64,000 nt of DNA from Cyanobacteria bacterium UBA5018 (GCA_002396505.1 DGYA01000124.1:3814-67813); one strand, 5' to 3'; positions 1,462 through 34,266 are shown, counted from the stretch's first letter. The notes: generated by a model not told the origin, from the sequence alone. Program-made: numbers and translations.

Positions 1462-4400
1462 TCAGGCAGCCGGGGGCATGCCAACCACCTGGGTGTGGGC
1501 ACCGCGGGCCTGGGTGACGCCGATGGTGCGGTTGGCGGCGGCGATCATCGGCCGCCGGTGGCTGACCACCAGGAACTGGGCGGCATCGGCCTGGGCGGCG
1601 ATCAGCCCCGCCAGCCGCTCCACATTCACCCCATCAAGGAAGCTGTCCACCTCATCTAGGGCATAGAAGGGGGAGGGGCGAAAGCGCTGCAGGGCGAACA
1701 GGAAGCTGAGGGCGGTGAGCGACTTCTCGCCGCCGCTCATCGCCGCCAGCCGCCGCACGGCCTTGCCCTTGGGATGGGCCACCAGGGTGAGCCCCCCCTC
1801 CAGGGGCGCCTCGGGGTTATCCAGCTGCAGCTGCCCCTCCCCCTCCGATAGCCCCGCGAAGATCTCGCGGAAGTGGCCATCCACAGCCACAAATGCCTCC
1901 ATGAACGCCTCCTGGCGCAGGGTGGCCACGGTTTCGATCCGCAACAGCAGCTCCTGCCGCTCCTTGCTGAGCACTTCGAGGCGTTCATCCAGCTCCGCCA
2001 GCCGCTGCTCCAGCTGTTCCAGCTCCTCTAAGGCCAGCATGTTCACCGGTTCCAAAGCCTCCATCCGCTGCTGGATGGCGTGCAGATCCCGCTGCAGGGC
2101 CTCCAGGCCAGCGGCCCGCACCAGCTCGGGAATGGCGGGGGGTGGATCGGGCAGCTGGCGCTGGAGCTGCTCCAGCCGCTGCTGGCCGCTGCGCCTCTCC
2201 TCCTGCAGCCCCAGCAGTTCCTGGGCCAGCCGCTGCAGCTGCCACTGCTGTTGTTGCAACTGTTGTCGCCGGTCGGCCAGCTGGGCTTCGGCGATATCCC
2301 GGGCGCGCCGCTGCTCGCCAAAACGGGTTTGCAGCTCCTGCTGGCGGCTCTCCAGGGCGGTGCGTTGCTGCTGGTCCTGCTGCTGCTGCTGTTTCCACTG
2401 CTGCCGCTCGGCCACCAGCGCCTGCACCGCCGCCACCAGGCGCCGTTCATCGCCATCGAGGGCCTGCAAGCCCGTGGTGCAACGCTCCAGCGCCAGACTC
2501 CGCTCCCGCCGGGCGGCCAGCAGGCCATCCCGCTGTTGGCGGGCGGCGGAGAGGGCGGCATCGGCGCCCTCCAACTCTCTTTGCAGGCCCTGCCAGCGGG
2601 CGACATCGCCCGAGCCGGCGGCCTGGGCTTCCGCCGCCTCCAGTTCTGCCAACCGGCTGAGCATCGGGCCGATCTGGGCCTCTAATTGCCCCTGGCGCGG
2701 GCCATCGACGCCGATCGCCGCCGCCAGGGCGGCGAGGCGCTCGGCCAGCTGTTGCTGGCGCTGCTGCTGGGGGGCCAGGGCCCTGGCGGCCGCCTTGTAC
2801 TCCGCCTCCAGGGCTGCTCGACGCTGCTGGCGCTGCAGCAGCGCCGGGCGCTGGGCCTCCAGCTGCTGGGCCAGCTCCGCCTCCCGCCGCCGACAGGCCA
2901 CCAGGCTCTCGCCCAGCTCCAACAAGCGCCGGCGCAGCGGTTCGGCCTCGTCGCCCTCGGGGCTGCTGCCAAAGCTGAGCTGGCCACTGCGCTGCTGCAG
3001 GCTGCCGCCGGTCATGGCGCCGCTCTTCTCCAGCAGCTCCCCGTCGAGGGTCACCGCCCGGCAGCGGCCCAATTCGCGGCGGGCGCTGCTGAGATCGCCA
3101 AATACCAGGGTGTCGCCGAACACGTAGCGAAACACCTCGGCGTAGACCGGCTCGTGGCGCACCAGTTCCACGGCCCGCCCCACCAGGCCCCCGCCAGCGG
3201 GGCCTGGCGCTTCCCCCCGCCGCAGGGCGGCGGAATTGCTGGAGCCGGGGCTCGTGGAGCCGGCGCCGTAACCGCTGCCGCGGATCTTGTTCAGCGGCAG
3301 AAAGGTGAGCCGACCGGCGCGGCGGCTCTTGAGCAGCTCAATGGCGCGGGCGGCGATGCGGTCGTCATCCACCACCACCTGGCCGAGGCGGGCGCCGGCC
3401 GCCACCTCCAGGGCCAAGCGGTGCTGCTCCTGCACCTCCCCCAGCTGGGCGACAGGGCCATGGATGCCCTCCAGGCCGGCCTCCAGCAGCATCCGCAGGG
3501 CGCCTGTGCCACGGCTCTCCTGGAGGGTTTCGCGGCGGCTATCGAGGCGGGCGATCTCCCGCTCCAGCTGGGCCTGCTCCTGCTCCAGGCGGCTGCGGGT
3601 GCGCTGCTGCAGGGCCAGGGCTGCCGCCAGCTCCTGGAGCCCGGCCTGCGCCTGGGCCAGGTCTACTTCCAGCTGCTGCCATTCCCGTTCGGCCTGCTGC
3701 GACTGCTCGGCGGCGCTGCGGCCGGCATCGGTTTCGCCGGCCTGTTCGGCGCTTAGTTCCAGTTGGCGCTGGCGGTTCTGGCGCAGCCGTTCCAGCAGTT
3801 GCTGCAATTCGGCCTGCAGCGGCGCCAGGCCCTCGCTGAGCTGCTGGCGCTGCTGGCTGCGCTGGCGCTGCTGCTCCAGCCAGCTGCCGCTGCGGTCGGC
3901 CACCTCCCCCAGGCGCCGGCGGGAGAAGTCGACGGACGCTTCTGCATCGCGGCAGGCGACCTCGGCGGCCTGCAGGGGCTGTTCGTCGTCGTTGGCCTGG
4001 AGCAGCTGCAGCTGCTGGCGCAGCTCTGCCTGCTGGCCGGCCAGCTGCTGGCGCTGGCGCTGCAGGGCTTCTGCATCCAATTGGTGCTTTTCCGCCTGGC
4101 GGGCCAGTTCCCGGGCCCTGGCCTCCAAACCGGCCAGTTCGGCCTGCACGGCCAGCAGCTGATCTTCTCCGAGGGCCTTCACCTCAGCCTGCAGCTGTTC
4201 GAGCAGGGCGGCGGCGGCGGTGATTTCGCCTTCCTTCACCAGCAGCTCCGCCTGGCCCTGCTGTTGCTGTTGCTCGAGGGCCTGCTGGCGCTGGTCGAGC
4301 TGCCGCAGGGCCAGGGCGGCGGCCTCCCAGGCCAACAGCTGTTCCTGCAGGCGGCCTGTCTGGAGGCGCTGGCGCAGCTCCTGGTAGCTGCGGGCCTTGG

Positions 4401-5100
4401 CGCAGTCGCGCTCCAGTTTCTGGCGCGACACCAGCAGCTCCTGGCGCACGATGTCGCAGCGCTCCTGGCTTTCCTGCACCTCGCTGAGCTTGCCGCGACT
4501 CTGCTCGATGCGGGTATCGAAGAGGGCCACCCCTGCCAGTTCATCGATGATGCCGCGGCGATCGCGGGAGCTCATCGAGACGATGCGGGTGACATCGCCC
4601 TGCATGACCACGTTGCTGCCCTCTGGATCCACCCGCAGGCGGCGCAATTGGGTCTGCAGCTGCTGCAGATTGCAGGGCACCCCGTCGGCGTTGAAGCTGC
4701 TGCTGTAGGTGCCCCCCGGCGCCACCCGCAGCCGCCGGCTGACGGTCCAGCTGCTCTGGCCGGGCTGGATCCAGGGACCCTGCTCCACCAGCTCCAGGCC
4801 CAATTCGGATGGATCGGGCTGCCAGTCGGCCAGGTCAAAGCGCACGCTGACCACGGTTTCGGCGGCGCGGCCCTGGCGGAGCATGGCGCTATTGATCAGA
4901 TCGGGCAGCCGTTCGGCGCGCATGCCGCGGCTGGTGGCCAGGCCCAGGCAGAACAGCACCGCATCGAGGATGTTGCTCTTGCCCGAGCCATTGGGGCCGG
5001 TAACCACCGTAAAACCGGTCTCGAGCGGGATCGAGATCGAGCCGCCAAACGACTTGAAGTGGGTGAGCTCGACCTGATTGATGTGGACCAACAGGCCCAT
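1462..5100 (-). CDS. smc: Chromosome segregation protein SMC
   Basis: It has an N-terminal Walker A (GPNGSGKSN), very long Q/E/L/A-rich coiled coils and a central hinge. The C-terminus carries MSGGEKSLTALSFLFAL...YALDEVDSFLD (signature plus Walker B). The start is taken at MGLLVHINQVELTHFKSFGG; the ORF is open to 5136. Confidence 0.95.
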   Translation of the reverse strand: MGLLVHINQVELTHFKSFGGSISIPLETGFTVVTGPNGSGKSNILDAVLFCLGLATSRGMRAERLPDLINSAMLRQGRAAETVVSVRFDLADWQPDPSELGLELVEQGPWIQPGQSSWTVSRRLRVAPGGTYSSSFNADGVPCNLQQLQTQLRRLRVDPEGSNVVMQGDVTRIVSMSSRDRRGIIDELAGVALFDTRIEQSRGKLSEVQESQERCDIVRQELLVSRQKLERDCAKARSYQELRQRLQTGRLQEQLLAWEAAALALRQLDQRQQALEQQQQQGQAELLVKEGEITAAAALLEQLQAEVKALGEDQLLAVQAELAGLEARARELARQAEKHQLDAEALQRQRQQLAGQQAELRQQLQLLQANDDEQPLQAAEVACRDAEASVDFSRRRLGEVADRSGSWLEQQRQRSQQRQQLSEGLAPLQAELQQLLERLRQNRQRQLELSAEQAGETDAGRSAAEQSQQAEREWQQLEVDLAQAQAGLQELAAALALQQRTRSRLEQEQAQLEREIARLDSRRETLQESRGTGALRMLLEAGLEGIHGPVAQLGEVQEQHRLALEVAAGARLGQVVVDDDRIAARAIELLKSRRAGRLTFLPLNKIRGSGYGAGSTSPGSSNSAALRRGEAPGPAGGGLVGRAVELVRHEPVYAEVFRYVFGDTLVFGDLSSARRELGRCRAVTLDGELLEKSGAMTGGSLQQRSGQLSFGSSPEGDEAEPLRRRLLELGESLVACRRREAELAQQLEAQRPALLQRQQRRAALEAEYKAAARALAPQQQRQQQLAERLAALAAAIGVDGPRQGQLEAQIGPMLSRLAELEAAEAQAAGSGDVARWQGLQRELEGADAALSAARQQRDGLLAARRERSLALERCTTGLQALDGDERRLVAAVQALVAERQQWKQQQQQDQQQRTALESRQQELQTRFGEQRRARDIAEAQLADRRQQLQQQQWQLQRLAQELLGLQEERRSGQQRLEQLQRQLPDPPPAIPELVRAAGLEALQRDLHAIQQRMEALEPVNMLALEELEQLEQRLAELDERLEVLSKERQELLLRIETVATLRQEAFMEAFVAVDGHFREIFAGLSEGEGQLQLDNPEAPLEGGLTLVAHPKGKAVRRLAAMSGGEKSLTALSFLFALQRFRPSPFYALDEVDSFLDGVNVERLAGLIAAQADAAQFLVVSHRRPMIAAANRTIGVTQARGAHTQVVGMPPAA

Positions 5101-5184
5101 TCGCCAGTCATCGGAAATGTAGCGGAGGCTGCCCACCGCTCCAGGGAGTTCCTAGCCTGGGCTTAGCAACGCGCGCGAGGTTAG

Positions 5185-5880
5185 ATGGATCCCAATACCA
5201 GGCTGAATCCAGCGACAGGCCTGGATCCCGATACCAGGCTGAATCCGGATACCAGGCTGGATCCGGAGCAACGGCTGAATCCTGAGTCCCACCTAAAACC
5301 CGAAACAAAACTGGCTGGCGAGACTGAACTGCATGGCGAGACAGGGCTGCATGACGAGACAGGGCTGGCTCTCGATCCCCCCAACCCCGCGGCGACCAGC
5401 CCCGCGGCTGCCAGCCCCGCATGCCAGGTGCCCAAGCCGGAACCACCCGGCTGGCGGCACCAGTCCGGGGGGGCTGGGGCGGCGCAGTTGCCGCTGGTGA
5501 ACAGCTTCCGCGAGCGCTTTGAGGCGCTGCTACCTCGCATCCAGGAGCAGTGGCCCAGCGTGGCCCGCCACAGCCTGGAGGCCAGCCGCGGCAGCCTAGA
5601 GGAGGTTGCGGCGGTGATCGCCAGCCAAACGGGCCGCACCGCCACGGTGGTGCAAGAACAGCTGCTGGAACTGCTGCAGGTGGCCGGCGAGCAGACAGCC
5701 CGCCTGGCCGATGGCCTCGAACCCCTGGAGCAGCAGCTGCAGCGCCTGCTAGACGAACTCGACGCCACCCTGAGGCCCCGGCTGGAGGCGCCGGTGCGTC
5801 AGCGGCCCCTGTTGGCCGTGGGCCTGGCCGCCGGCGTGGGCCTGCTGGTTGGCATGCTGCTCTCCTCCAGACGGCGCTAG
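5185..5880 (+). CDS. DUF883 (ElaB/YqjD)-like tail-anchored protein with N-terminal hexapeptide repeats
   Basis: The C-terminus ...PVRQRPLLAVGLAAGVGLLVGMLLSSRRR* resembles the DUF883 tail anchor, and the middle is helical. Positions 5230-5373 are 8 in-frame 18-nt units encoding (D/E)TxLxx. The start is uncertain (alternative GTG 5497). Confidence 0.5.
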   Translation: MDPNTRLNPATGLDPDTRLNPDTRLDPEQRLNPESHLKPETKLAGETELHGETGLHDETGLALDPPNPAATSPAAASPACQVPKPEPPGWRHQSGGAGAAQLPLVNSFRERFEALLPRIQEQWPSVARHSLEASRGSLEEVAAVIASQTGRTATVVQEQLLELLQVAGEQTARLADGLEPLEQQLQRLLDELDATLRPRLEAPVRQRPLLAVGLAAGVGLLVGMLLSSRRR

Positions 5881-5882
5881 GC

Positions 5883-6281
5883 ATGACTGAGTCGCAACCC
5901 CAGGGCCAGGGCCAGGGTCGCGGCCCCGGAATGGCTGGCCGGGTGACGGCCCTGGCCGCCTCGGTGATGGATTTGCACGTGCGCATCGCCCTGCAGGAAA
6001 TCGACCGGGAGAAGCGGCGGCTGATTGGCGGCGGCCTGTTTTTGATCCTGGGGGGAGTGTTGATGCTGCTGGCCCTGGTGGCGCTGCAGGCGGCCCTGGT
6101 GGTGTGGCTGGTGCAGGGCCAGGGCTGGCCGCTGGGCCAGGCGCTGCTGGCGGTGGCGGCCCTGGATTTGACGGTGGCTGGCGCCAGCCTGCGGCTCGGC
6201 GGCCTGCTCACCAAGGGGCCCTACCTGCCCCAAACCATCGAGGGCCTCAACCGCACCAGCCGCGCCCTGCTGGGCCGCTGA
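5883..6281 (+). CDS. Phage holin family / Holin-X (YqjE-like) membrane protein
   Basis: ATG 5883 lies 2 nt after the upstream stop. DLHVRIALQEIDREKRRLIGGGLFLILGGVLMLLALVAL... is followed by further TM segments. This is the typical partner of DUF883 genes (yqjD-yqjE arrangement). Confidence 0.55.
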   Translation: MTESQPQGQGQGRGPGMAGRVTALAASVMDLHVRIALQEIDREKRRLIGGGLFLILGGVLMLLALVALQAALVVWLVQGQGWPLGQALLAVAALDLTVAGASLRLGGLLTKGPYLPQTIEGLNRTSRALLGR

Positions 6282-6597
6282 GCACCGAACAAATCATGGT
6301 GATCACCGGCATCCCCCTAGACCACCTGCGCCACACCCGCGCCTTCCAAGAAATCCACAACGAGGGAATGCAAAAGGCCTACAGGAAGGCCTACAGAAAG
6401 GCCGACAGGAAGGCCAACGCCAGGAGGCCGCCGCCCTCACCATGAGGCAGCTCGATCGCCGTTGCGGGCCCCTTCTCCCCGCCAACAGGGCCGCCATCGA
6501 GGCGCTGGAGCTGGTAAAGCTGGAGACCCTGGCAGAAGAGTTGCTGGACTTCAGCGGCGCGGCAGACCTGCTGCGCTGGCTTGATCTACAGGGCTGA
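6277..6597 (+). pseudogene. 3' fragment of an Rpn/DUF2887-family gene (DUF4351-like C-terminal part), frameshifted
   Basis: Nucleotide homology to 7308..7632 of the intact copy begins at GCTGAGCACCGAACAAATCATGG, exactly at the stop codon of the preceding gene. It encodes LSTEQIMVITGIPLDHLRHTRAFQEI..., then shifts frame before ...QEAAALTMRQLDRRCGPLLPANRAAIEALEL...LLDFSGAADLLRWLDLQG*. Confidence 0.7.
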
Positions 6598-6687
6598 GAG
6601 CTGGATTCGCAAGCGGGCTAAACAGATTCGCGGCCCCCTATTTCTATTTCCCGCCGCCGTAGTTTCCAGCCCAACCTCAAACCACCA

Positions 6688-7632
6688 TTGAAGAGCGACC
6701 ACTGGTTCTACCGGGTGTTTCAGGCGTTGCCCGATCTAATCCGCTGGCTGCCGGCTAACGATGCTGATTCTGGCTCCGGCTTTGCTGACCAGGGCCTGGC
6801 GACAGCGGGCCAAGGACTGCTGGAAGCGGGAGAAGACAGTCTTTATCGCTTTTCGGCGCCAGAACTAAAAGCCCTTAGCCACCGCCTCGATGGCCTGCTC
6901 TGGCCCAGGGATTCAGCCTCTGGCTCCGAGGCTCTGCCGGTGGTGATCCTCGAGGTGCAGATGCACCCCGATCCGGTCTTTCACCACCGTTTAGCGGCCG
7001 AAACCTTCCGCTTTCTCCAGCAGCAGCCCCAGGTGCGCCACCTGCGGGTGGTGGTGCTCCTGGCCCATAGCCGGCTGAACCTGGGGACAAGGCAACCCGC
7101 CGCCCTCGGGCGCTTCCTCACAGAAGACGTGGCCTGGGTGGATCTAGAGGCACTCTGCCGCCAGCAAGGCACCGATCCCCTGCTGGCGCTGCTCACCATC
7201 CCCCTGCGGCCGGAACCAGAGCTGGGCAGTTGCTGCCAGGAAATCCTGGCGTTGCGACCAGAACTGCTGGAGCTGATTTTGCCTATGCTTGTGGAAAGAT
7301 TCGCTGAGCTGAGCACCGAACAAATCATGGTGATCACCGGCATCCCCCTAGACGACCTCCGCCACACCCGCGCCTTCCAGGAAATCCTCAGCGAGGGCAA
7401 ATACAAGGGCCGACAAGAAGGTCTGCAGGAAGGCCTGCAAAAAGGCCAACGCCAGGAGGCCGCCGCCCTCACCCTGCGGCTACTCGAACGCCGCTGCGGG
7501 CCCCTACTACCCGCCACCAGGGCCGCCATTGAGGCGCTGGAGCTACCGCAGCTGGAGAGCCTGGCAGAAGAGTTGCTGGACTTCAGCGGCGCGGCAGACC
7601 TGCTGCGCTGGCTGGAGCTGCAGCAGTGCTGA
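6688..7632 (+). CDS. Rpn-family recombination-promoting nuclease / putative transposase (cyanobacterial DUF2887 type, DUF4351-like C-terminus)
   Basis: It starts at a TTG. MKSDHWFYRVFQALPDLIRWL...YRFSAPELKALSHRLDGLLWP...PVVILEVQMHPDPVFHHRLAAETFRFLQQ matches the pattern I know for DUF2887/Rpn PD-(D/E)XK proteins. The C-terminus ...TLRLLERRCGPLLPATRAAIEALELPQLESLAEELLDFSGAADLLRWL is DUF4351-like. Confidence 0.7.
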   Translation: MKSDHWFYRVFQALPDLIRWLPANDADSGSGFADQGLATAGQGLLEAGEDSLYRFSAPELKALSHRLDGLLWPRDSASGSEALPVVILEVQMHPDPVFHHRLAAETFRFLQQQPQVRHLRVVVLLAHSRLNLGTRQPAALGRFLTEDVAWVDLEALCRQQGTDPLLALLTIPLRPEPELGSCCQEILALRPELLELILPMLVERFAELSTEQIMVITGIPLDDLRHTRAFQEILSEGKYKGRQEGLQEGLQKGQRQEAAALTLRLLERRCGPLLPATRAAIEALELPQLESLAEELLDFSGAADLLRWLELQQC

Positions 7633-7723
7633 GGGCTGGAATCGCAAGCAGGCTAAACAGATTCGCGGCCCCCTATTTCTATTTCGCGCCGCCGTAGTTT
7701 CCAGCCCAGCCTCAAACCCCCCA

Positions 7724-7903
7724 TTGAAGAGCGACCACTGGTTCTACCGGATGTTCCAGGCGTTGCCCGATCTAATCCGCTGGCTGCCGGCTAACGATGC
7801 TGATAAATCGAGGCGCCTACGGCGCCCTCCGCAACAAACCAACAGCCTTAAATCCAGAAACCATAAATCCAACAGCCAAGGGCTAAGAAAATCCAATGGT
7901 TAA
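7724..7903 (+). pseudogene. 5' fragment of a further Rpn/DUF2887 copy (first ~27 codons conserved, then unrelated tail)
   Basis: The spacer plus TTG-KSDHWFYRMFQALPDLIRWLPANDAD repeats 6598..6768 almost exactly. Homology stops at 7804. Confidence 0.6.
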
Positions 7904-25926: not shown

Positions 25927-26148
25927 CTATTTTTCCCAGATCTCCCCCAACCCATCCCAGCCAATCAGGGCAAGGCAAGTTATACAAACCAGGCAAGGCA
26001 AGCCAATCAAGAAAAGCAAACCAAGCCAAGCCAAGCCAGTCAATAAAGGCAAATTAACCAAGAAAACCAAGGAAATCAAGGAAAACAGGTTAGCCAAAGA
26101 GCGTCTCAAAAATTGCCACTCATGCTCATAGTAGCTATGAAAATTCAA
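25927..26148 (-). CDS. Hypothetical membrane protein in an AT-rich islet
   Basis: This 73-aa ORF has two hydrophobic segments. The underlying DNA is itself repetitive (CAAGGCAAG, CCAAGCCAAGCCAAGCC), so coding status is uncertain. Confidence 0.3.
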   Translation of the reverse strand: MNFHSYYEHEWQFLRRSLANLFSLISLVFLVNLPLLTGLAWLGLLFLIGLPCLVCITCLALIGWDGLGEIWEK

Positions 26149-26560
26149 ATATTTTCAATATTTTATTTGTCAAAAAGTCGTTAATACTTGAGGGAAGCTC
26201 GAAAGATCTCAAATTCCTCCCATTTTATGGTGCGAAAAATGGTGCGAAGAACCTGGTGTCGACTTGCCTACCCTTAACTCATGTGGACCGAATGGACAGT
26301 TTTTTGAGGTGCCCTTGAGATTTTTCTAAGGTGTCCTCAAAACACCCAGGCCCAGGTCTATCCCACTAAGGCCTAAGGCCTGTCCCACTCGGGCCTAAGG
26401 CTGTCACCCTAAGAATTTCCCGGCAAAACCTGCATAACATAGACCCTTAAACTTATGCCGGCCCCCGATAGCATTTATCCCTGCTGGCCTGGGAACATTA
26501 GTACCCTTGTTGCTGCAGGAGGAGCCTTGTGGCAACCCTGAAGCCAGCGACTGAATCTTA

Positions 26561-28015
26561 ATGCTCTGGATTTGGCATCACCAGCCAGCGCCAGCCGGCA
26601 AAGCAGCCTTGCAACAGCAGCCTGCCCTGCGACACCAGCCTGCCGCCCTAAGAGCAGCTGCCGCGCTACGCATCTGTGCCGCTCTGCTGCTGTTCCCCCT
26701 GGGGGGCTGTCAAGCAACTGCCCAGCTGGTGGGCAAGCCGCCCACGCCAGGGCCGCTGCCCGCCGGCATTGAGCTGGTGTTCAACCACAACCCCCTGCAG
26801 CATTACCGCAGTCCCATCAGCGGCCAATGGCGAGCTGGCGACGACCTGGAGGCATTCATCCTGCGGGGCATTAATTCCGCCCAGCGGGAAATACTTGTGG
26901 CAGTGCAGGAATTATCGCTACCCAAAGTGGCCGAGGCATTGGCCCGCCGCCAGAGCGAAGGTATCACAGTGCGTGTAATTCTAGAGAACACCTACAGCAA
27001 GCCCTGGAGCCAAGAGCATGCCGCCGATCTCAGCCCCCACCAGCGACTCCGCAATACCCAGTTACAAAAACTGGGCTGGGGAGATGCGGTAGCAATTATG
27101 CAACAGGCCCATGTGCCGATGATCGACGATACCGCAGATGGCAGCAAAGGTAGCGGCTTGATGCACCATAAATTCATGGTGATTGATCGGCGGGAAGTGA
27201 TTACCGGTTCCACCAACTTCTCCCCCTCCTGCGTCCATGGCGACCCGGATGATCCAACCACCCTGGGCAACGTCAACCATCTACTGCGCTTCCAGAGCCC
27301 TGCCCTGGCTGAGTTGTTCGCCGCCGAATTCAACCGCATGTGGGGCGATGGCCCCGGCGGTGCAGCCGACAGTCAATTTGGCTTAGCCAAGCAAGAAGGG
27401 CCACTGCAGGTGGTGCAAATTGGCGAGACAACGGTAGGGGTGCTGTTTGCGCCCCATCCCCGCCGCGACGGCAATAATGGGCTGGCAGTAATCGACAACT
27501 TGCTGTCCGAAACCGATAGGAGCCTGGATCTGGCCCTATTTGTACTGTCCGAACAACGGCTGGCAGATACGATGGAAGCTCTACAGCAGCACGGGATAAA
27601 GATTCGATTACTGGCCGATCCAGGTTTTGCAAATCGCTCATTCAGCGAGGTGCTTGACCTGCTCGGCACGCGCATGCCCGATCGCCGCTGCATGCTGGAG
27701 GCAGGCAACAAGCCTTGGCAGCAACCCCTCGCTGGGGTAGGCACACCACGCCTGCCCAGAGGCGACAAATTGCATCACAAATTAGCGATCATCGACGACG
27801 AACGAGTGATCAGCGGCTCCTTCAACTGGAGCCCCAGCGCCTCCTTCCAAAACGACGAAACCCTGCTGGTGATCGATTCAGCTCTACTCGCCCGCCACTT
27901 CAAGGCTGAAATCGACCAACTCTGGAAAACAGCCGAATTGGGCATTAGCCCCCGCCTGGCCCGAAAACAGCTAAGGCTGCAACAAAAATGCGGCCGTGGC
28001 CAGCAGCGCAGTTAG
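26561..28015 (+). CDS. Phospholipase D-family (double HKD) lipoprotein
   Basis: Two HKD motifs are present: HHKFMVIDRREVITGSTNFS and HHKLAIIDDERVISGSFNWS. The N-terminus has a lipobox-like LLLFPLGGC. Confidence 0.85.
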   Translation: MLWIWHHQPAPAGKAALQQQPALRHQPAALRAAAALRICAALLLFPLGGCQATAQLVGKPPTPGPLPAGIELVFNHNPLQHYRSPISGQWRAGDDLEAFILRGINSAQREILVAVQELSLPKVAEALARRQSEGITVRVILENTYSKPWSQEHAADLSPHQRLRNTQLQKLGWGDAVAIMQQAHVPMIDDTADGSKGSGLMHHKFMVIDRREVITGSTNFSPSCVHGDPDDPTTLGNVNHLLRFQSPALAELFAAEFNRMWGDGPGGAADSQFGLAKQEGPLQVVQIGETTVGVLFAPHPRRDGNNGLAVIDNLLSETDRSLDLALFVLSEQRLADTMEALQQHGIKIRLLADPGFANRSFSEVLDLLGTRMPDRRCMLEAGNKPWQQPLAGVGTPRLPRGDKLHHKLAIIDDERVISGSFNWSPSASFQNDETLLVIDSALLARHFKAEIDQLWKTAELGISPRLARKQLRLQQKCGRGQQRS

Positions 28016-28177
28016 CGACAACAGCGCTGCAACCTGGCAACAAGGTCACAAATGGCCCGCTGAAAAGGGCCCCTAGGTAAAGAAAACCATCGGCTTTATC
28101 TTCTCGCTGCCTAGACGTTGCCAGGTTGAGCACAGTGAGGGTCAACCTCCGTGCCGCTGGCTTCAGGCGGCGTCGCG

Positions 28178-29113
28178 ATGCCCGATCATTTTTCCCCCTC
28201 AGGGCGGCGCCTGAGCGGCCTGGCGCTGGCCTTCGCCCTACTGGCCCCCGGACTGGTGACACCCCTGGCCGCCGCGGCCGAAACGGTGCTGGAGCGGGCG
28301 GCCCGCACCGGCGTGATCAGCATGGGCGGCCGCACCGATCTGCCCCCCTTCTCCTTTCTCGATGGCAGCAAAGCGGTCACGGGCTTCTCGATTGATGTGG
28401 CCCGGCTGATCGAGGCGGAGGCAAGCGCCTACCTGGGCAAGCCAGTGAAACTGGAGTTCCAGGTGGTGAACGACCCCGCCACCCTGTTCCGCCAGGTGAG
28501 CCATGGTGAAACCGACCTGGCCTGCGGCGCCCAATTCACCTGGGAGCGGGAGATGTTTGTTGATTTCTCGCTGCCCTACAGCCTCTCCGGCATCCGGGTG
28601 CTGAGTAGAGATGGGCGCATTGACGGCTCGCCCCAGAGCCTGGTCGGCAAGCGCATTGGCGTGCTGGCTGGCGGCCTCGGCGACACCACCATCGCCGACC
28701 TGCAGCCCAAGGCCCTGCGCCAACCCTTCCCTGGCCTTAACGAAGCGGTGGCGGCCCTGCAGACAGGCAAGGTGGACGCAGTGGCCGGCGATTCACTGCT
28801 GTTGATGGCAATCCGCAAGCTCAAGGGCAAACAGGGCCTGGAATTACGGCCCGAACAGCCCCTGGCCCGCTATGCGGTGGGCTGCATCATGCCGGAAAAT
28901 AATTCCACCTTCCGCAATCTGGTAAATATAGCCATTGCCAGGCTGCTACAGAGTTACCTCAACGATGATCCGGCTGCTGTGGCCATCGTCAATCGCTGGT
29001 TCGGCCCGCAGGGGATGCTCGAGCTGCCCAGCCCGATGATCAAGGCCTATTTCGCAGCCGTAATGCTCAACTATGAGCAGATCCAGGTTGCCTCTCCCTC
29101 CTCCGCCAAATAG
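28178..29113 (+). CDS. Orphan periplasmic substrate-binding protein (amino-acid ABC family 3 type)
   Basis: It has a signal peptide and an SBP_bac_3-like sequence (GVISMGGRTDLPPFSFLDGSKAVTGFSIDVARLI..., GETDLACGAQFTWERE, VDAVAGDSLLL). No permease or ATPase gene is adjacent. The ORF is open from GTG 28151. Confidence 0.85.
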   Translation: MPDHFSPSGRRLSGLALAFALLAPGLVTPLAAAAETVLERAARTGVISMGGRTDLPPFSFLDGSKAVTGFSIDVARLIEAEASAYLGKPVKLEFQVVNDPATLFRQVSHGETDLACGAQFTWEREMFVDFSLPYSLSGIRVLSRDGRIDGSPQSLVGKRIGVLAGGLGDTTIADLQPKALRQPFPGLNEAVAALQTGKVDAVAGDSLLLMAIRKLKGKQGLELRPEQPLARYAVGCIMPENNSTFRNLVNIAIARLLQSYLNDDPAAVAIVNRWFGPQGMLELPSPMIKAYFAAVMLNYEQIQVASPSSAK

Positions 29114-29123
29114 CAGCAGATCC

Positions 29124-29552
29124 ATGTCGATTAATACCCGCTCCGGCCTGTTCGCCTTCCTGATGGTGCTGGCCACCCTGCAGATCCCGGCCGGCCAGGC
29201 CAGTGCTAGCGCCGGCGCCGAGGCCACTGGCAACCCAGCCCCCGCCGGTTCGATCACCGGTTCGATCGAGGCGCGCCTGCAGCGCATCTCTGCCGCCCTG
29301 CGGGAACAGCAGCTGCAAGGCGGTGTGGAGGCAGCCGCTGGGGCCGACCTGCGCCTGGCCGCCGGCTTCGTCAATGGTGGCCGTGGCGGCTGGGGTAACA
29401 GCCGCTATGGCGGCTTTGGCAATGCCCATCCCTACTACGGCGGGGGCGTCGGCTTCCTCAATGGCAACGGCGGTTTCCGCAACGGTGGTTTCCGCAATGG
29501 GGGCTTCCTCAATGGCGGCGGCTTTCGCAATGGCGGATTTGTGAATTGGTAG
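29124..29552 (+). CDS. Secreted Gly-rich repeat protein (rSAM-associated, GRRM-type candidate precursor)
   Basis: It has the signal peptide MSINTRSGLFAFLMVLATLQIPAGQASA and a helical middle. The C-terminus reads GGRGGWGNSRYGGFGNAHPYYGGGVGFLNGNGGFRNGGFRNGGFLNGGGFRNGGFVNW*. Confidence 0.8.
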   Translation: MSINTRSGLFAFLMVLATLQIPAGQASASAGAEATGNPAPAGSITGSIEARLQRISAALREQQLQGGVEAAAGADLRLAAGFVNGGRGGWGNSRYGGFGNAHPYYGGGVGFLNGNGGFRNGGFRNGGFLNGGGFRNGGFVNW

Positions 29553-29572
29553 GGCCGGCAGGGGAGCGGACC

Positions 29573-30739
29573 ATGGGGCAGAACCAAGCCGCTGGCGAGC
29601 CCAACTACGGGCCGATCAGCCTGCTGGTGGTCCAGGCCACCCCCTACTGCAACTTGGACTGCGACTACTGCTACCTGCCAGATCGCGACAACCGCGCCCG
29701 CCTAAAGCCAGAGTTGCTCGATCCAATCCTGGATCGGCTGCTCAGCAGCCCCTTCATCGACGGCGACTTCACCCTGCTCTGGCATGCCGGAGAGCCATTG
29801 GCACTGCCAGTGAGCTTTTATGACGAAGCCAGCCGCCGCATCCAGGCGGCGCTGGAGCGTCATCCCGAACGGCACATCGCCATCCACCAGTCGATCCAGA
29901 CCAACGGCACGTTGATCGATCAGCAATGGTGTGAGTGCTTCCAGCGCCACCAGATCAGCGTGGGGGTGAGCCTGGACGGGCCCGCGTTTCTCCACGATGC
30001 CCACCGCCGCACCCGCACCGGCCTGGGCAGCCATGCCGCCACGATGCGGGGCATTGGCTGGCTGCGCCGCTACGGACTGCCCTTCCATGTGATCAGCGTG
30101 CTGGGGGAGCAGGGCCTCGATCACGCCGACAGCATCTTCCAGTTCTTTCTGGAGCAGGGCATCCACGACGTGGGCTTCAACATGGAAGAAACAGAAGGCA
30201 TCAATCGCGCCTCCAGCCTGCAGGGAAGTGAATGCGAAAGGCGCTTCAGCGCCTTCATGCACCGCTTCTGGGAACTGACCAGGGCCACGGGCGAACAGTT
30301 CGTACTGCGGGAGTTCGAGAGCGTCTACTCACTGGCCTATGCCGATGCTCGGCTCAAACAAACCGACATGAACAAACCGTTCGTGATCGTGAGCGTGGAT
30401 CACCAGGGCAACTTCTCCACCTTTGACCCTGAGTTACTAGCTGTCCACACCGAAGAATATGGTGATTTCGTGCTCGGCAACGTGCAAACCGATAGCCTGG
30501 AATCGGTTATTGCCACGGAAAAATTCCAACGCATCCAGCATGACATGGCAGCTGGCGTGGCCCGCTGTCGCGAAAGCTGCGACTACTTCGGCCTATGCGG
30601 TGGCGGCGCCGGCAGCAATAAATATTGGGAGAATGGCAGCTTTAACTCCACCGAAACCCAGGCCTGCCGCTATCGGGTAAAGCTAGTGGCAGACGTGGTG
30701 CTAGCCGGGCTGGAAGAAGCCCTCTCCCTGACACCATAA
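29573..30739 (+). CDS. Radical SAM/SPASM-domain peptide-modifying enzyme (anSME-like, GRRM-type)
   Basis: The CX3CX2C motif is YCNLDCDYCY. The C-terminal auxiliary-cluster motif is CRESCDYFGLCGGGAGSNKYWENGSFNSTETQACRY. Confidence 0.9.
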   Translation: MGQNQAAGEPNYGPISLLVVQATPYCNLDCDYCYLPDRDNRARLKPELLDPILDRLLSSPFIDGDFTLLWHAGEPLALPVSFYDEASRRIQAALERHPERHIAIHQSIQTNGTLIDQQWCECFQRHQISVGVSLDGPAFLHDAHRRTRTGLGSHAATMRGIGWLRRYGLPFHVISVLGEQGLDHADSIFQFFLEQGIHDVGFNMEETEGINRASSLQGSECERRFSAFMHRFWELTRATGEQFVLREFESVYSLAYADARLKQTDMNKPFVIVSVDHQGNFSTFDPELLAVHTEEYGDFVLGNVQTDSLESVIATEKFQRIQHDMAAGVARCRESCDYFGLCGGGAGSNKYWENGSFNSTETQACRYRVKLVADVVLAGLEEALSLTP

Positions 30740-30788
30740 AAGCAAAAACACAGCGAACGAGATTAAGATCAACCAAAAGGCAGTGCAC

Positions 30789-30866
30789 AAAGCCAGCGAA
30801 CAAAGCCAGCGAACAAAGGCTGTGAACAAAGGCTCTGAACAAAGACTCTGAACAAAGCGGCTGTGC
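30789..30866. repeat. 13-nt tandem array x6 (AAAGCCAGCGAAC consensus)
   Basis: Units start at 30789, 30802, 30815, 30828, 30841 and 30854. The array lies directly downstream of the rSAM gene. Confidence 0.85.
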
Positions 30867-30937: not shown

Positions 30938-31180
30938 ATGGAGTCCAAGCCCACCTCCGCCCAGCACGCACCCACCCTGGATGCGATCCAGCTGATGCTG
31001 CGTGATCTGCACACCCGCCACGAGGAGATTCGCCACAAGGCGGCCTTCCGAGGCTGCACCCGAGAGCTGTTGGAAGTGCAGCAGGAACTGGTCGACTACC
31101 TGCTCACCAAAAAAAGCCACCTGATGGGCCAAGAGGCCTCGGGCAGTGCCCCAAAGCGGAACTACAACTCTTTTGTCTGA
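30938..31180 (+). CDS. Hypothetical 80-aa helical protein
   Basis: The product is MESKPTSAQHAPTLDAIQLMLRDLHTRHEEIRHKAAFRGCTRELLEVQQELVDYLLTKKSHLMGQEASGSAPKRNYNSFV. It is flanked on both sides by tandem arrays. Confidence 0.4.
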   Translation: MESKPTSAQHAPTLDAIQLMLRDLHTRHEEIRHKAAFRGCTRELLEVQQELVDYLLTKKSHLMGQEASGSAPKRNYNSFV

Positions 31181-31262
31181 GCTACTGGCTTTGCTGACCC
31201 ACTCGTTTGCTTTAGCCACTGGTTTGCTTTAGCCACTGGTTTGTCTGAGCCGCTTGCTCTGA
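31181..31262. repeat. 17-nt tandem array x5 (GCCACTGGTTTGCTTTA consensus)
   Basis: Units start at 31181, 31198, 31215, 31232 and 31249. The array begins on the base after the stop codon at 31178-31180. Confidence 0.85.
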
Positions 31263-31300: not shown

Positions 31301-32530
31301 ATGCGAGTAGTGGTGGTGGGAGCCGGTCCGGCAGGGGCCTCCCTGGCCCTGGCCTTGGCACGGGCTGGCATCGCCACCACGCTGGTGGAAGCAGCCACCA
31401 ATTTCAATCGGGAGTTGCGCGGTGAGGCCCTGATGCCCTCGGGCCTGGAGGCCCTTGCGGCACTGGGCTTGGCGCCCATTGCCGCGGCCGTGCCCCAGAG
31501 GGCCCTGGCCGGCTGGGCCGTGGCCGTGCAGGGCCGTCTGCTGTTCGAACTGGATGAACCGCTCGGGGCCAGCGACGAAGCGGCCTGCACCCTGGTCAAC
31601 CAAACAGTCTGGCTGGAGCGGCTGCTCTGCCCCGCCGCCAGGCCAAGCGCGCTAACGCTGCTCACCGGCCAGCCAGTGAAGCAGCTGTTGCGCGACGACA
31701 GCAGCGCAGCCCGCATCTCGGGCGTGACCCTGGCCACAGGCCAGCAGCTCCAGGCCGATCTGGTGGTGGCCTGCGATGGCCGAGCCTCCTTGCTAAGGCG
31801 CCAGGCAGGCCTGGCGCTAATCGGCCAGGACAGCCCCATCGATGTGCTCTGGTTTCGCTACGCGGAAACGCCCACAGCGCCGCCCCTGGCCGGCCGCTTT
31901 TACACCCTGGTGGGCGACGAGGGGATCGGCAGCCTGTTTTGCAATGCCAGCGGTCAGGTTCAGCTGGGCTGGGTGATCGATCATCTAGCGCCCACCCCGT
32001 TGCGCAGTGCCGCTGAATGGAGCGCCAGGCTGGCCAGCCAGGCCCCGCCGCCGCTGGCCAGCTGGCTACTGGCAAATGCGGCTTGCTTAACCGCTCCGGT
32101 GCGGCTGAGCGTGCAGGTGGGCATGGCCGAACGCTGGTGGCAACCGGGTCTGCTGCTGCTGGGCGATGCGGCCCACCCGATGAGCCCGGTGCGGGCCCAG
32201 GGGATCAATGGGGCTCTGCGGGATGCAGCGGTGGCGGCTCGGCAGCTGATCGAGCTGGCGCAACCCCTGGCCCCGGGCGCCAGCCCGCCGCCGGCAGCGA
32301 TCGACGCCAGGCTGGCCGCCATCGAAGCTGAGCGGCGGCCAGAGGTGAGCCAACTGCAGATCCTGCAGGCAGAAGAAATGCGTCGCGGCGAACTGCTACG
32401 CCAAAGGCCAGCCCTGCGCTGCCTGCTGGCGGCAACGGCGCCCCTGCTGGGGGGGCTGATCGGCAGGCGCTGGCGCAGCCAGCAGCTACAGCTCAGGCAG
32501 GGGATCAATCGCCTGACGCTGCGGCCATGA
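31301..32530 (+). CDS. FAD-dependent monooxygenase (UbiH/aromatic-ring hydroxylase family)
   Basis: It has the dinucleotide fold VVVVGAGPAGASLALALARAG and the motif LLGDAAHPMSPVRAQGINGALRDA. Confidence 0.85.
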   Translation: MRVVVVGAGPAGASLALALARAGIATTLVEAATNFNRELRGEALMPSGLEALAALGLAPIAAAVPQRALAGWAVAVQGRLLFELDEPLGASDEAACTLVNQTVWLERLLCPAARPSALTLLTGQPVKQLLRDDSSAARISGVTLATGQQLQADLVVACDGRASLLRRQAGLALIGQDSPIDVLWFRYAETPTAPPLAGRFYTLVGDEGIGSLFCNASGQVQLGWVIDHLAPTPLRSAAEWSARLASQAPPPLASWLLANAACLTAPVRLSVQVGMAERWWQPGLLLLGDAAHPMSPVRAQGINGALRDAAVAARQLIELAQPLAPGASPPPAAIDARLAAIEAERRPEVSQLQILQAEEMRRGELLRQRPALRCLLAATAPLLGGLIGRRWRSQQLQLRQGINRLTLRP

Positions 32531-33176: not shown

Positions 33177-33252
33177 GTCTAGCTGGACGGCTTAGGTCTA
33201 GCTGGACGGCTTAGATCTAGCTGGACGGCCTAGGTCTAGCCGGACGGTCTGG
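33177..33252. repeat. 19-nt tandem array x4 (GTCTAGCTGGACGGCTTAG)
   Basis: Units start at 33177, 33196, 33215 and 33234. A degenerate unit lies upstream near 33141. Confidence 0.85.
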
Positions 33253-33385
33253 CTGGAGGGTTCGGGGCTGGCGGGAGGGTCTGTGGACCGGGCCTGCTGC
33301 AGCTCCATTTTCGCCAAGCTGCTTGGCGATTGCTTTTGGTCGCAGCGAGGTTTCTGGCCAATCAAGAAAGTGAATGCGCCTCCCC

Positions 33386-33790
33386 TCAAGCGGGTTGGGC
33401 AAGGATGGCGAGTGCCGTGGCATCCATGGTGGCCAGTCGCCAATCACTGCTCACCACGGCCCGCTCTGCCAATAAGCAGAGGGGGGTTTGGCGTGCCTCG
33501 GCCTCACAACTGGCGGAGAGGGCCAGCAGCGCCCCGGTGAGCTTGCCCCGCAGGCAGGCCTCGGCGCCCCTGCGCTCCAGCACGGCCCTGGCGGCCAGGC
33601 GACTGCGCTCCACCGCCTCGAAATAAGGGACTGGAGTTACACCGCCCATCACCCCCGCCAACCCAGCGGAGTGAAAGCCAACTGCCAGCAACAGCGCAAG
33701 CAAGCCGATCTGAATAGACCTCGAGGCAAATCGCCTGGGAAAGATTGCAATTCGCCTGGCCAACATTGCAACCAGTTCAGGAAAGATCAT
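33386..33790 (-). CDS. Hypothetical secreted protein
   Basis: It has an ATG start, a signal-like segment (RSIQIGLLALLLAVGFHSAGLAG) and Cys residues in the mature part. Confidence 0.4.
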   Translation of the reverse strand: MIFPELVAMLARRIAIFPRRFASRSIQIGLLALLLAVGFHSAGLAGVMGGVTPVPYFEAVERSRLAARAVLERRGAEACLRGKLTGALLALSASCEAEARQTPLCLLAERAVVSSDWRLATMDATALAILAQPA

Positions 33791-33991: not shown

Positions 33992-34098
33992 CCGCAGATA
34001 TGCCAAGACGGCAGGGTCGCCAGATATGCCCAGGCGCCGTGGTGGCCAGATGTACCCAGTCGGCAGGTCGCCAGATATGCCCGGCGGCAAGGTCGACG
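33992..34098. repeat. ~26-nt tandem array x4 (CAGATATGCC core)
   Basis: The core occurs at 33995, 34021, 34047 (CAGATGTACC) and 34072. Confidence 0.7.
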
Positions 34099-34140
34099 CA
34101 ATCACGATTTACCAGAGTTTGCTCAGGGGCCTGATCAGCA

Positions 34141-34266
34141 TTAGGCCAGCAGCCAGCCTTAGGCCAGCAGCCAGCCTTAGGCCAGCAAGCAGCCTTAGGC
34201 GCCCGGAGATGATTGGGCGCCCAGGGGTAATTAAGCGCCCGGAGATGATTAGGCAAGATGACGTGA
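34141..34266. repeat. 18-nt tandem array x7 (TTAGGCCAGCAGCCAGCC, drifting to TTAGGCGCCCGGAGATGA)
   Basis: Units start every 18 nt from 34141 to 34249. Confidence 0.8.

Follow-up and report, generated by a model that had tools for sequence, protein, structure and literature searches.

The characterised founder of the GRRM (Gly-rich repeat modification) family, TIGR04260-04262, is the OscA/OscB system of Oscillatoriales cyanobacterium CG2_30_40_61. Its radical S-adenosylmethionine (SAM) enzyme OscB (IPR026357, OIP69445.1) was co-expressed with its precursor, and nuclear magnetic resonance (NMR) revealed three-residue cyclophanes (PMC11002830, citing Nguyen et al., Nat Chem 2020). The links run from Trp-C7 to Asn/Asp-Cβ and from Phe-C4 to Asn-Cβ (PMC11002830), and the Phe products are paracyclophanes (PMC11499958); we took this chemistry from reviews and later papers. 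Here we analyse three adjacent genes, grrP, grrA, and grrM, in a 64,000-nt stretch of DNA from Cyanobacteria bacterium UBA5018 (DGYA01000124.1:3814-67813), hereafter the window, from whose start all window coordinates are counted. We conclude, with a probability of roughly 0.8, that the three genes belong together as a single triceptide cassette of the GRRM (Osc) type, carried by a freshwater picocyanobacterium and acting through the mechanism proposed below. The genes are as follows:

28178..29113, + strand: grrP, 311 aa (alternative GTG start at 28151); its product, an orphan that is putatively exported, has a type-3 (polar amino-acid) solute-binding protein fold
29124..29552, + strand: grrA, 142 aa; GrrA/OscA1-family precursor of a predicted cyclophane-containing ribosomally synthesised peptide with post-translational modifications (RiPP)
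29573..30739, + strand: grrM, 388 aa; predicted radical SAM three-residue cyclophane-forming enzyme, OscB orthologue

The Osc locus, which is among our comparison loci (L079) and encodes exactly OIP69445.1, contains the same three families as the window. Its precursors resemble GrrA in having a signal-like N-terminus, an IExRLxRI helix (IESRLSRI in L079), and a Gly-rich W/F-x-N(D) core; the OscA motifs (WGN, FVN, WRN, WGD, and FIN) are of the same types as those of GrrA, and OscB and GrrM share the same three radical SAM and four C-terminal cysteines. The two loci also differ. The window encodes one precursor and the Osc locus two; the core of GrrA is nearly all Phe (eight F, one W), whereas OscA uses mostly Trp; GrrA has a central HPYYGG and a C-terminal Trp, whereas OscA ends in ...FINSR; and grrP is co-directional and 10 nt upstream in the window but divergent in L078 and L079. 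Two residues of GrrM, Tyr252 and Ser359, are Cys in OscB.

Several more distant enzymes (XncB/XyeB, MscB/FxsB, YhhB, AmcB, and ChlB, PDB 9gm3) share with GrrM the radical SAM fold and a CGGG[AS] C-terminal Cys motif, and they too form an aromatic-to-Cβ C-C link to the residue two positions on, with several motifs per precursor. These other triceptide systems belong to other phyla, have short precursors with no signal peptide, lack GrrP, and usually have a protease or transporter nearby.

A GRRM cassette and its maturase

The three same-strand open reading frames (ORFs) are separated by 10 nt (grrP to grrA, 29114..29123) and 20 nt (grrA to grrM, 29553..29572). This agrees exactly with a preliminary description of the stretch, and the strings quoted there (CNLDCDYC, CRESCDYFGLCGGG...ACRY, and ...GFLNGNGGFRNGGFRNGGFLNGGGFRNGGFVNW*) are all present. 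A longer ORF beginning at 29073 was considered for grrA and rejected, as homologues from loci with a GrrM identity of ~70% start at the position that corresponds to 29124. All three proteins are exact GenBank entries (HBH72538.1 to HBH72540.1), deposited from the metagenome-assembled genome (MAG) of Synechococcales bacterium UBA10510; HBH72538.1 (GrrM) is already labelled "GRRM system radical SAM/SPASM domain protein" and HBH72539.1 (GrrA) "rSAM-associated Gly-rich repeat protein".

Each protein scores above the curated cut-off of its family model: GrrP against TIGR04262 orph_peri_GRRM (278.2 bits, cut-off 190), GrrA against TIGR04260 Cyano_gly_rpt (77.3 bits, cut-off 31, residues 1-125 covered), and GrrM against TIGR04261 rSAM_GlyRichRpt (601.1 bits, cut-off 310). 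The preliminary description had given these model names exactly, and had rightly taken the trio for the cyanobacterial GRRM system; its proposal of a RiPP-type maturation cassette is borne out by the family scores and by the link to the characterised OscB. What does not survive is its statement that the chemistry is unknown and no modification described, since the OscB cyclophanes were determined by NMR and the NCBIfam models have been renamed: the GrrA model is now "GrrA/OscA1 family cyclophane-containing rSAM-modified RiPP", and the GrrM model is described as a cyclophane-forming maturase. The cassette is an uncharacterised locus of a known, catalogued family, and the defining features of the GrrA, GrrM, and GrrP families that can be read from sequence are present in it, the SPASM-type cysteines in part; we call it a known kind because the family chemistry is named in NCBIfam and two of the three proteins (GrrM and GrrA) are already annotated as GRRM-related in GenBank. 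The value of the comparison is in this respect corrective, the family chemistry having been solved in 2020 and extended in 2024: the locus is real but catalogued.

We scanned one genome per species (185,579 species) and obtained 229 stretches with GrrM relatives, of which the best 80 loci were analysed. Almost all come from freshwater picocyanobacteria (Cyanobium, Synechococcus, and Prochlorococcaceae MAGs), the others being from Lyngbya, Limnoraphis, Planktothrix, and further genera, with GrrM identities to the window of 57-98%. The trio co-occurs across these genomes, as the preliminary description had proposed to check: GrrP lies at most 3 kb upstream of GrrM in 75 of the 80 loci (four of the five exceptions are contig ends; GrrP is divergent in three loci), and a GrrA-type ORF adjoins GrrM in 77 (93 ORFs in all). 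The cultured Cyanobium sp. PCC 7001 (L082, DS990556.1) carries the trio, with a GrrA ending in FVNW, between DnaJ/ALAD and an opposite-strand CorA; here again the three genes are the unit.

GrrM aligns with OscB over 376 aa with 57% identity, 77% positives, and 0 gaps. Models of sister triceptide families give scores below their own cut-offs, the next best being AmcB (291 bits vs 425), followed by YhhB (135 vs 445), FxsB (115 vs 370), and XyeB (60 vs 450). Two sets of cysteines stand out in the protein:

29648..29671, + strand: radical SAM [4Fe-4S] ligands, GrrM C26-x3-C30-x2-C33, invariant in 81/81 aligned GrrM sequences
30566..30667, + strand: C-terminal four-Cys set, GrrM C332, C336, C342, and C365, resembling SPASM auxiliary cluster II

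The C-terminal set is invariant in 80/81 sequences, the remaining one being truncated, and in anSME and ChlB it aligns with the cysteines from the second half of the SPASM motif. The earlier assignment of a radical SAM enzyme with a SPASM-type cluster can be refined, since only the second half of that motif is seen: Pfam returns Radical_SAM, whereas SPASM reaches 18.7 bits, below its cut-off of 21.5, and matches at profile positions 27-66 only. The fourth Cys of the CX2CX5CX3C motif is Ala346 in GrrM, and the positions of the anSME auxiliary cluster I (Aux-I) ligands are occupied by T, V, D285, and A346, a pattern common to OscB and ChlB. GrrM therefore has no canonical SPASM Aux-I cysteines and fits its own family, not the textbook SPASM domain, an observation that is new here.

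Other cysteines of the family were also noted. All 81 sequences have Cys at position 120, for which anSME and ChlB offer no counterpart; at positions 252 and 359, most relatives, OscB among them, have Cys where the clade of the window has Tyr and Ser. An unusual Aux-I cluster built from C120, C122, C252, and C359 was considered and rejected, C252 and C359 each being often absent and not co-varying.

GrrM might instead be an anaerobic sulfatase-maturating enzyme that serves a sulfatase encoded elsewhere, the Gly-rich protein beside it being unrelated. By sequence, its best match among solved structures is indeed anSME/AtsB (PDB 4k37, E = 8e-26), ahead of the triceptide synthase ChlB (9gm3, E = 5e-16), some relatives are named "arylsulfatase regulator" in their source records, and PCC 7001 encodes a Cys-type sulfatase 2.7 kb downstream of its trio, beyond the opposite-strand CorA (trio and sulfatase, L082 8001-10533 and 13200-14636). 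However, the sulfatase maturase model TIGR03942 gives GrrM 152.4 bits against a cut-off of 349 and the 601 bits of the GrrM model; the SPASM domain of anSME is complete and holds two auxiliary clusters, the cysteines of the first being absent from GrrM, and the enzyme oxidises Cys or Ser to formylglycine without forming a cross-link. Among the 80 loci, just one encodes a relative of the PCC 7001 sulfatase; the window contains no sulfatase, and the proximity in PCC 7001 is probably coincidental because the gene is not conserved at the other loci. The orthologue OscB, moreover, modifies its Gly-rich neighbour (PMC11002830). We regard a sulfatase-maturating role, which the preliminary description had named as a possible refutation, as hardly credible.

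The GrrA precursor and its predicted rings and export

GrrA can be divided into three parts:

29124..29207, + strand: signal-peptide-like segment, residues 1-28 (MSINTRSGLFAFLMVLATLQIPAGQASA, followed by S); Sec-type as read by hand from the sequence
29265..29306, + strand: leader helix, residues 48-61 (IEARLQRISAALRE); presumed GrrM recognition element
29358..29549, + strand: core, residues 79-142, with nine aromatic-x-Asn motifs, a central HPYYGG, and a C-terminal Trp
Core motifs with start residues: FVN82, WGN90, FGN98, FLN111, FRN118, FRN123, FLN128, FRN134, and FVN139

The 64-aa core has Asn at the +2 position of 9 of its 10 Phe/Trp residues. Composition-preserving shuffles of the core contain on average 1.5 [F/W]-x-N motifs, and none of 20,000 reaches 9. 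Along the core, near-identical GGF(R/L/V)NGG units follow one another, and its DNA includes a 15-nt tandem repeat at 29445-29536. The same design extends through the family (n = 93, median length 136 aa), whose members have 5-11 aromatic-x-Asn/Asp motifs (median 9), with F (479) or W (292) as the aromatic residue and N (753) or D (27) at the third position; the C-terminal residue is Trp in 85/93. The helix motif [IVLM][EDQ]xR[LM]x[RK][IL] is likewise found in 85/93 members, and the OscA precursors of L079 also have the helix (IESRLSRITETIKE).

HPYYGG (29421-29438, GrrA residues 100-105) divides the core into three N-terminal and six C-terminal motifs. HPYYGRP, SPYYGRP, and HGYYGG are variants of this central motif, which recur in two GrrP-linked precursor clades.

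The proposed mechanism begins in the cytoplasm, where GrrM would recognise the helix IEARLQRISAALRE as a leader element and reductively cleave SAM at its CX3CX2C [4Fe-4S] cluster. In radical SAM cyclophane synthases generally, the 5'-deoxyadenosyl radical takes a hydrogen from Cβ of the Asn at motif position 3; the Cβ radical adds to the ring of the position-1 Phe or Trp, and re-aromatisation leaves a C-C cross-link in a strained three-residue cyclophane. By analogy with OscB, given the 57% identity and the matching motifs, GrrM would join each Phe/Trp ring to Cβ of the Asn two residues on. Up to nine rings are predicted for the GrrA of the window, eight on Phe (C4 to Asn-Cβ, paracyclophanes) and one on Trp (C7 to Asn-Cβ). 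At -2 Da per motif, nine rings would shift the mass of the precursor by up to -18 Da.

The stapled precursor would then leave the cytoplasm through Sec, with signal peptidase I cutting it. The order, modification before export, follows from reading the N-terminal 28 residues as a Sec signal peptide, a call based on a net positive n-region, a hydrophobic stretch from about residue 8, and ASA at residues 26-28 before the S. In the 93 GrrA ORFs, too, the hydrophobic region begins near residue 8 (its Kyte-Doolittle mean has a median of 2.4), the n-region has a net charge of +1 in 70, and all have the same order of parts, from n-region and hydrophobic region to helix and core. This apparent Sec-like signal-peptide layout in every GrrA, together with the conserved leader helix, is new here.

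The preliminary description had seen a puzzle in a cytoplasmic maturase with an exported substrate. Its inference that modification would precede export is kept, but the paradox is not, as there are two precedents. Sec-exported sulfatases are matured by AtsB/anSME, a cytoplasmic radical SAM enzyme of the same superfamily as GrrM, and their export comes later. Bufferins, which are RiPPs with Sec signal peptides, are modified before export as well (PMC11626156). They resemble GrrA in having an unusually long precursor, a Sec signal, cytoplasmic modification, and no dedicated exporter (PMC11626156), the export of GrrA itself being predicted; they differ in their MNIO/DUF692 enzyme, which makes thiooxazoles from Cys, in their role in copper buffering, and in having no binding-protein partner.

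A dedicated leader peptidase and/or exporter, the classical feature of a RiPP cluster, was not found in the 80 loci. Clustering of all flanking ORFs revealed no conserved protease, exporter, or ATP-binding cassette (ABC) component, and, apart from an oxygenase described below, the genes that recur beside the cassette are housekeeping genes of particular lineages (NadC, MnmE, and DUF4079). A Sec and signal peptidase route would explain why all 80 loci do without a protease or exporter of their own.

The hydrophobic N-terminus of GrrA could alternatively be a membrane anchor or a leader bound by GrrM, the product then staying cell-associated or cytoplasmic. The first ~10 residues of GrrA (M-x-x-x-x-R-S-G-L-x-G-F-L-L) are conserved beyond what is usual for signal peptides, as such a role would have it. 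Nevertheless, the succession of n-region, hydrophobic region, and small-x-small site runs throughout the family, a separate conserved helix is available for recognition, and an export signal is likewise present in the partner GrrP, along with two invariant Cys. These features make an anchor or leader unlikely and favour export.

GrrP and its association with GrrA

GrrP matches Pfam SBP_bac_3 (E = 2e-18), and its AlphaFold 2 (AF2) model (predicted local distance difference test, pLDDT, 87.4) is a closed two-lobed binding protein whose best PDB matches are Glu-, Asp-, Arg-, and Gln-binding proteins (target-normalised TM-scores up to 0.88). A hydrophobic stretch is present at the N-terminus of all 87 full-length homologues. 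Export of GrrP by the twin-arginine route was considered, but the "GRRL" of the window protein is not conserved in the homologues inspected.

GrrP shares with the SBP_bac_3 proteins GlnH, DEBP, ArtJ, and ArgBP the two-lobed fold and a mostly conserved Arg/Asp pair: R124 (kept in 70/88 sequences) and D205 (88/88) align with the residues that bind the amino-acid backbone in proteins of the glutamine-binding protein (GlnBP) type. Unlike them, it has an invariant Cys pair (C116 and C236), invariant F120 and W122, and a family-specific extra C-terminal helix (aa 285-298), and in the alignment Gln or Pro stands opposite Thr70 of GlnBP. It also differs from ABC binding proteins in its surroundings, being linked to grrA and not to transporter genes. 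As the preliminary description had noted, the protein has no permease or ATPase partner nearby; none was found among the ORFs examined at 23.4-36.1 kb, where a 545-aa ORF had no family search.

These features bear on whether GrrP is simply an ordinary binding protein of a polar-amino-acid ABC transporter, with the permease and ATPase encoded elsewhere and its position without functional meaning. The fold, the best structural matches, and the retained R124 and D205 are all consistent with that, as are the source annotations (GenBank, IMG), which name an "amino acid ABC transporter substrate-binding protein". It sits less well with the presence of GrrP beside GrrA and GrrM in 75/80 loci, across cyanobacterial orders and with varied flanks, with a binding loop remodelled at the Thr70 position and around F120 and W122, with the conserved extra helix, and with the existence of a curated "orphan" model of its own. 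Both GrrP copies are, in addition, kept in the tandem loci described next. An ordinary transporter subunit is in our view very unlikely.

The clades of GrrP follow the types of GrrA. GrrP of clade 5, which includes L001-L005 (95-99% GrrP identity to the window), is followed by a GrrA of the HPYYG type in 20/20 cases, and GrrP of clade 1 by a non-HPYYG GrrA in 27/27. Thirteen loci have the order grrP1-grrA1-grrP2-grrA2-grrM, with one pair of each kind and a single shared GrrM:

~2900-7150: tandem pairs in L030, L041, L044, L049, L051, L056, L058, L060, L067-L070, and L075

For the pairing we used the table of clades against types and the tandem loci, leaving the distance correlation aside. That GrrP clades track GrrA types is new here, as are the 13 tandem loci, and as evidence of partnership the pairing is suggestive.

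On this genomic association, GrrP, which would also be exported and has a remodelled binding loop, may be the extracytoplasmic partner of the GrrA product, binding either the whole stapled tail or a fragment of it. We tentatively propose, as a possibility short of an even chance, that GrrA, unlike a conventional small RiPP, becomes a Sec-exported protein of ~110 aa whose Gly-rich tail is stiffened by up to nine staples, and that GrrP, as an amino-acid-binding protein without its former transporter, is its dedicated periplasmic receptor or chaperone, the two evolving as a matched pair of ligand and receptor. The preliminary description had already suggested a receptor or chaperone.

Several points weigh against this proposal and the mechanism behind it. 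The activity of GrrM and the number and topology of the rings are extrapolated from an orthologue at 57% identity, and the signal peptide of GrrA was judged by hand, a membrane-anchor or leader role for its N-terminus being also conceivable. The retained R124 and D205 would suit a 110-aa protein no better than a small ligand resembling an amino acid, and because these amino-acid-site residues are retained there is room for a small ligand of GrrP, either a cyclophane fragment or an ordinary amino acid. The pairing could reflect joint duplication or transfer of adjacent genes; the distance correlation between GrrP and GrrA (Spearman 0.57) is not above that between GrrP and GrrM (0.59) and therefore cannot separate co-evolution from shared ancestry. 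Finally, every characterised triceptide is freed by a proteolytic cut made ahead of the first cyclophane motif (PMC12912966), and a protease encoded at the locus was looked for and not found.

The mature product could also take another form, in which a housekeeping protease releases one or more short cyclophane peptides from the core and GrrP would recapture or sense these amino-acid-sized pieces. Besides the precedent of proteolytic maturation, the closed amino-acid-binder pocket of GrrP, with its Arg/Asp pair mostly retained, would suit such ligands, and the near-identical GGF(R/L/V)NGG units could give repeated small products. On the other hand, the 80 neighbourhoods have no conserved protease, and conservation of the C-terminal Trp, of HPYYGG at the centre, and of the leader helix within a single protein suggests that constraint acts on the whole GrrA chain. 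The literature within reach holds no product data from a native producer. We consider release of short peptides rather unlikely.

If the receptor or chaperone reading is true, it would give triceptides their first physiological setting and a solute-binding protein a new use. In the literature within reach we found no statement on the biological role, the export route, or the function of GrrP. The locus raises the questions of what use cyanobacteria make of heavily stapled Gly-rich proteins and why an orphan binding protein travels with each precursor; the signal-peptide layout, the modules of GrrP and GrrA, the tandem loci, the lack of a protease or exporter, and a 2-oxoglutarate (2OG) oxygenase in a quarter of the loci (see below) make these questions directly testable.

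Flanking genes and other features of the loci

The ORFs at 23.4-36.1 kb of the window comprise DUF4912/Rho_N, PLD, the trio, a small ORF, an FAD oxidoreductase, a 161-aa ORF, and the 545-aa ORF. The cassette is bounded on its left by a spacer:

28016..28177, + strand: upstream intergenic spacer, left edge of the conserved cassette, presumed promoter region

A scan of the + strand of this spacer for the sigma-70 consensus gave no match; around the operon, Rfam gave no match of note, and promoter and terminator counts were at the level of shuffled sequence.

Three neighbours on the same strand had been put forward as possible members of the system. In tblastn searches against the 80 loci, the PLD gene (26561..28015) was found only in L004 and L005, and the small ORF (30938..31180) and the FAD monooxygenase (31301..32530) only in L001-L004, all of these relatives having a GrrM identity of at least 93%. 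All three are therefore rejected as cassette members, and represent local synteny with the closest relatives only. In L001-L003, which have 93-94% nucleotide identity to the window, homology starts at 28059-28066, just upstream of grrP; because these near-identical loci lack the PLD gene, with homology from 28059, the gene is not part of the cassette. In its place L001-L003 (1-4480) have a gene of 760 aa, and the left flank is a variable region.

The small ORF (30938..31180, + strand, 80 aa) has no Pfam or NCBIfam match and is lineage-specific, being confined to L001-L004. Compared with L004 it has 20 synonymous and 4 non-synonymous codon changes, which indicates purifying selection and a real gene.

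In 20 of the 80 loci the GRRM genes have a 2OG-Fe(II) oxygenase (PF13640) beside them, at two different positions:

Downstream of GrrM, ~7000-7820: L006-L013 and L015
Upstream of GrrP: L018, L019, L022, L027, L029, L031, L035, L036, L040, L057, and L066

Because its position varies, this suggests an accessory tailoring enzyme in some lineages. The gene is absent from the window, in which neither a 2OG oxygenase nor a second GRRM system was found elsewhere.

Some records among the loci have unexpected labels. L080, a 2.97-Mb contig labelled Candidatus Eremiobacterota, has a GrrM relative (60% identity) at 6001-7116 and, at 5319-5967, an Asn/Gly-rich precursor split over two reading frames, with no GrrP within 6 kb; this could reflect a variant from outside the cyanobacteria, a frameshift, or mislabelling of the record. 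Five "JJ-" MAGs (L001, L049, L059, L061, and L068) contain picocyanobacterial sequence with up to 98% GrrM identity to the window, and their titles (Chitinophaga pinensis, Rhizobium sp., Acidovorax caeni, Mesorhizobium, and Bordetella parapertussis) look mislabelled.

Short tandem repeats (units of 13-26 nt, 2-6 copies) occupy most intergenic spacers of a 9-kb stretch around the operon, the spacer upstream of grrP being free of them:

25985-26086, 26361-26413, 30776-30857, 31178-31251, 33177-33261, 33726-33771, and 33995-34254: spacer tandem repeats

The spacer between grrM and the small ORF has a 13-nt unit repeated 6.3 times, and the spacer after the small ORF a 17-nt unit repeated 4.4 times.

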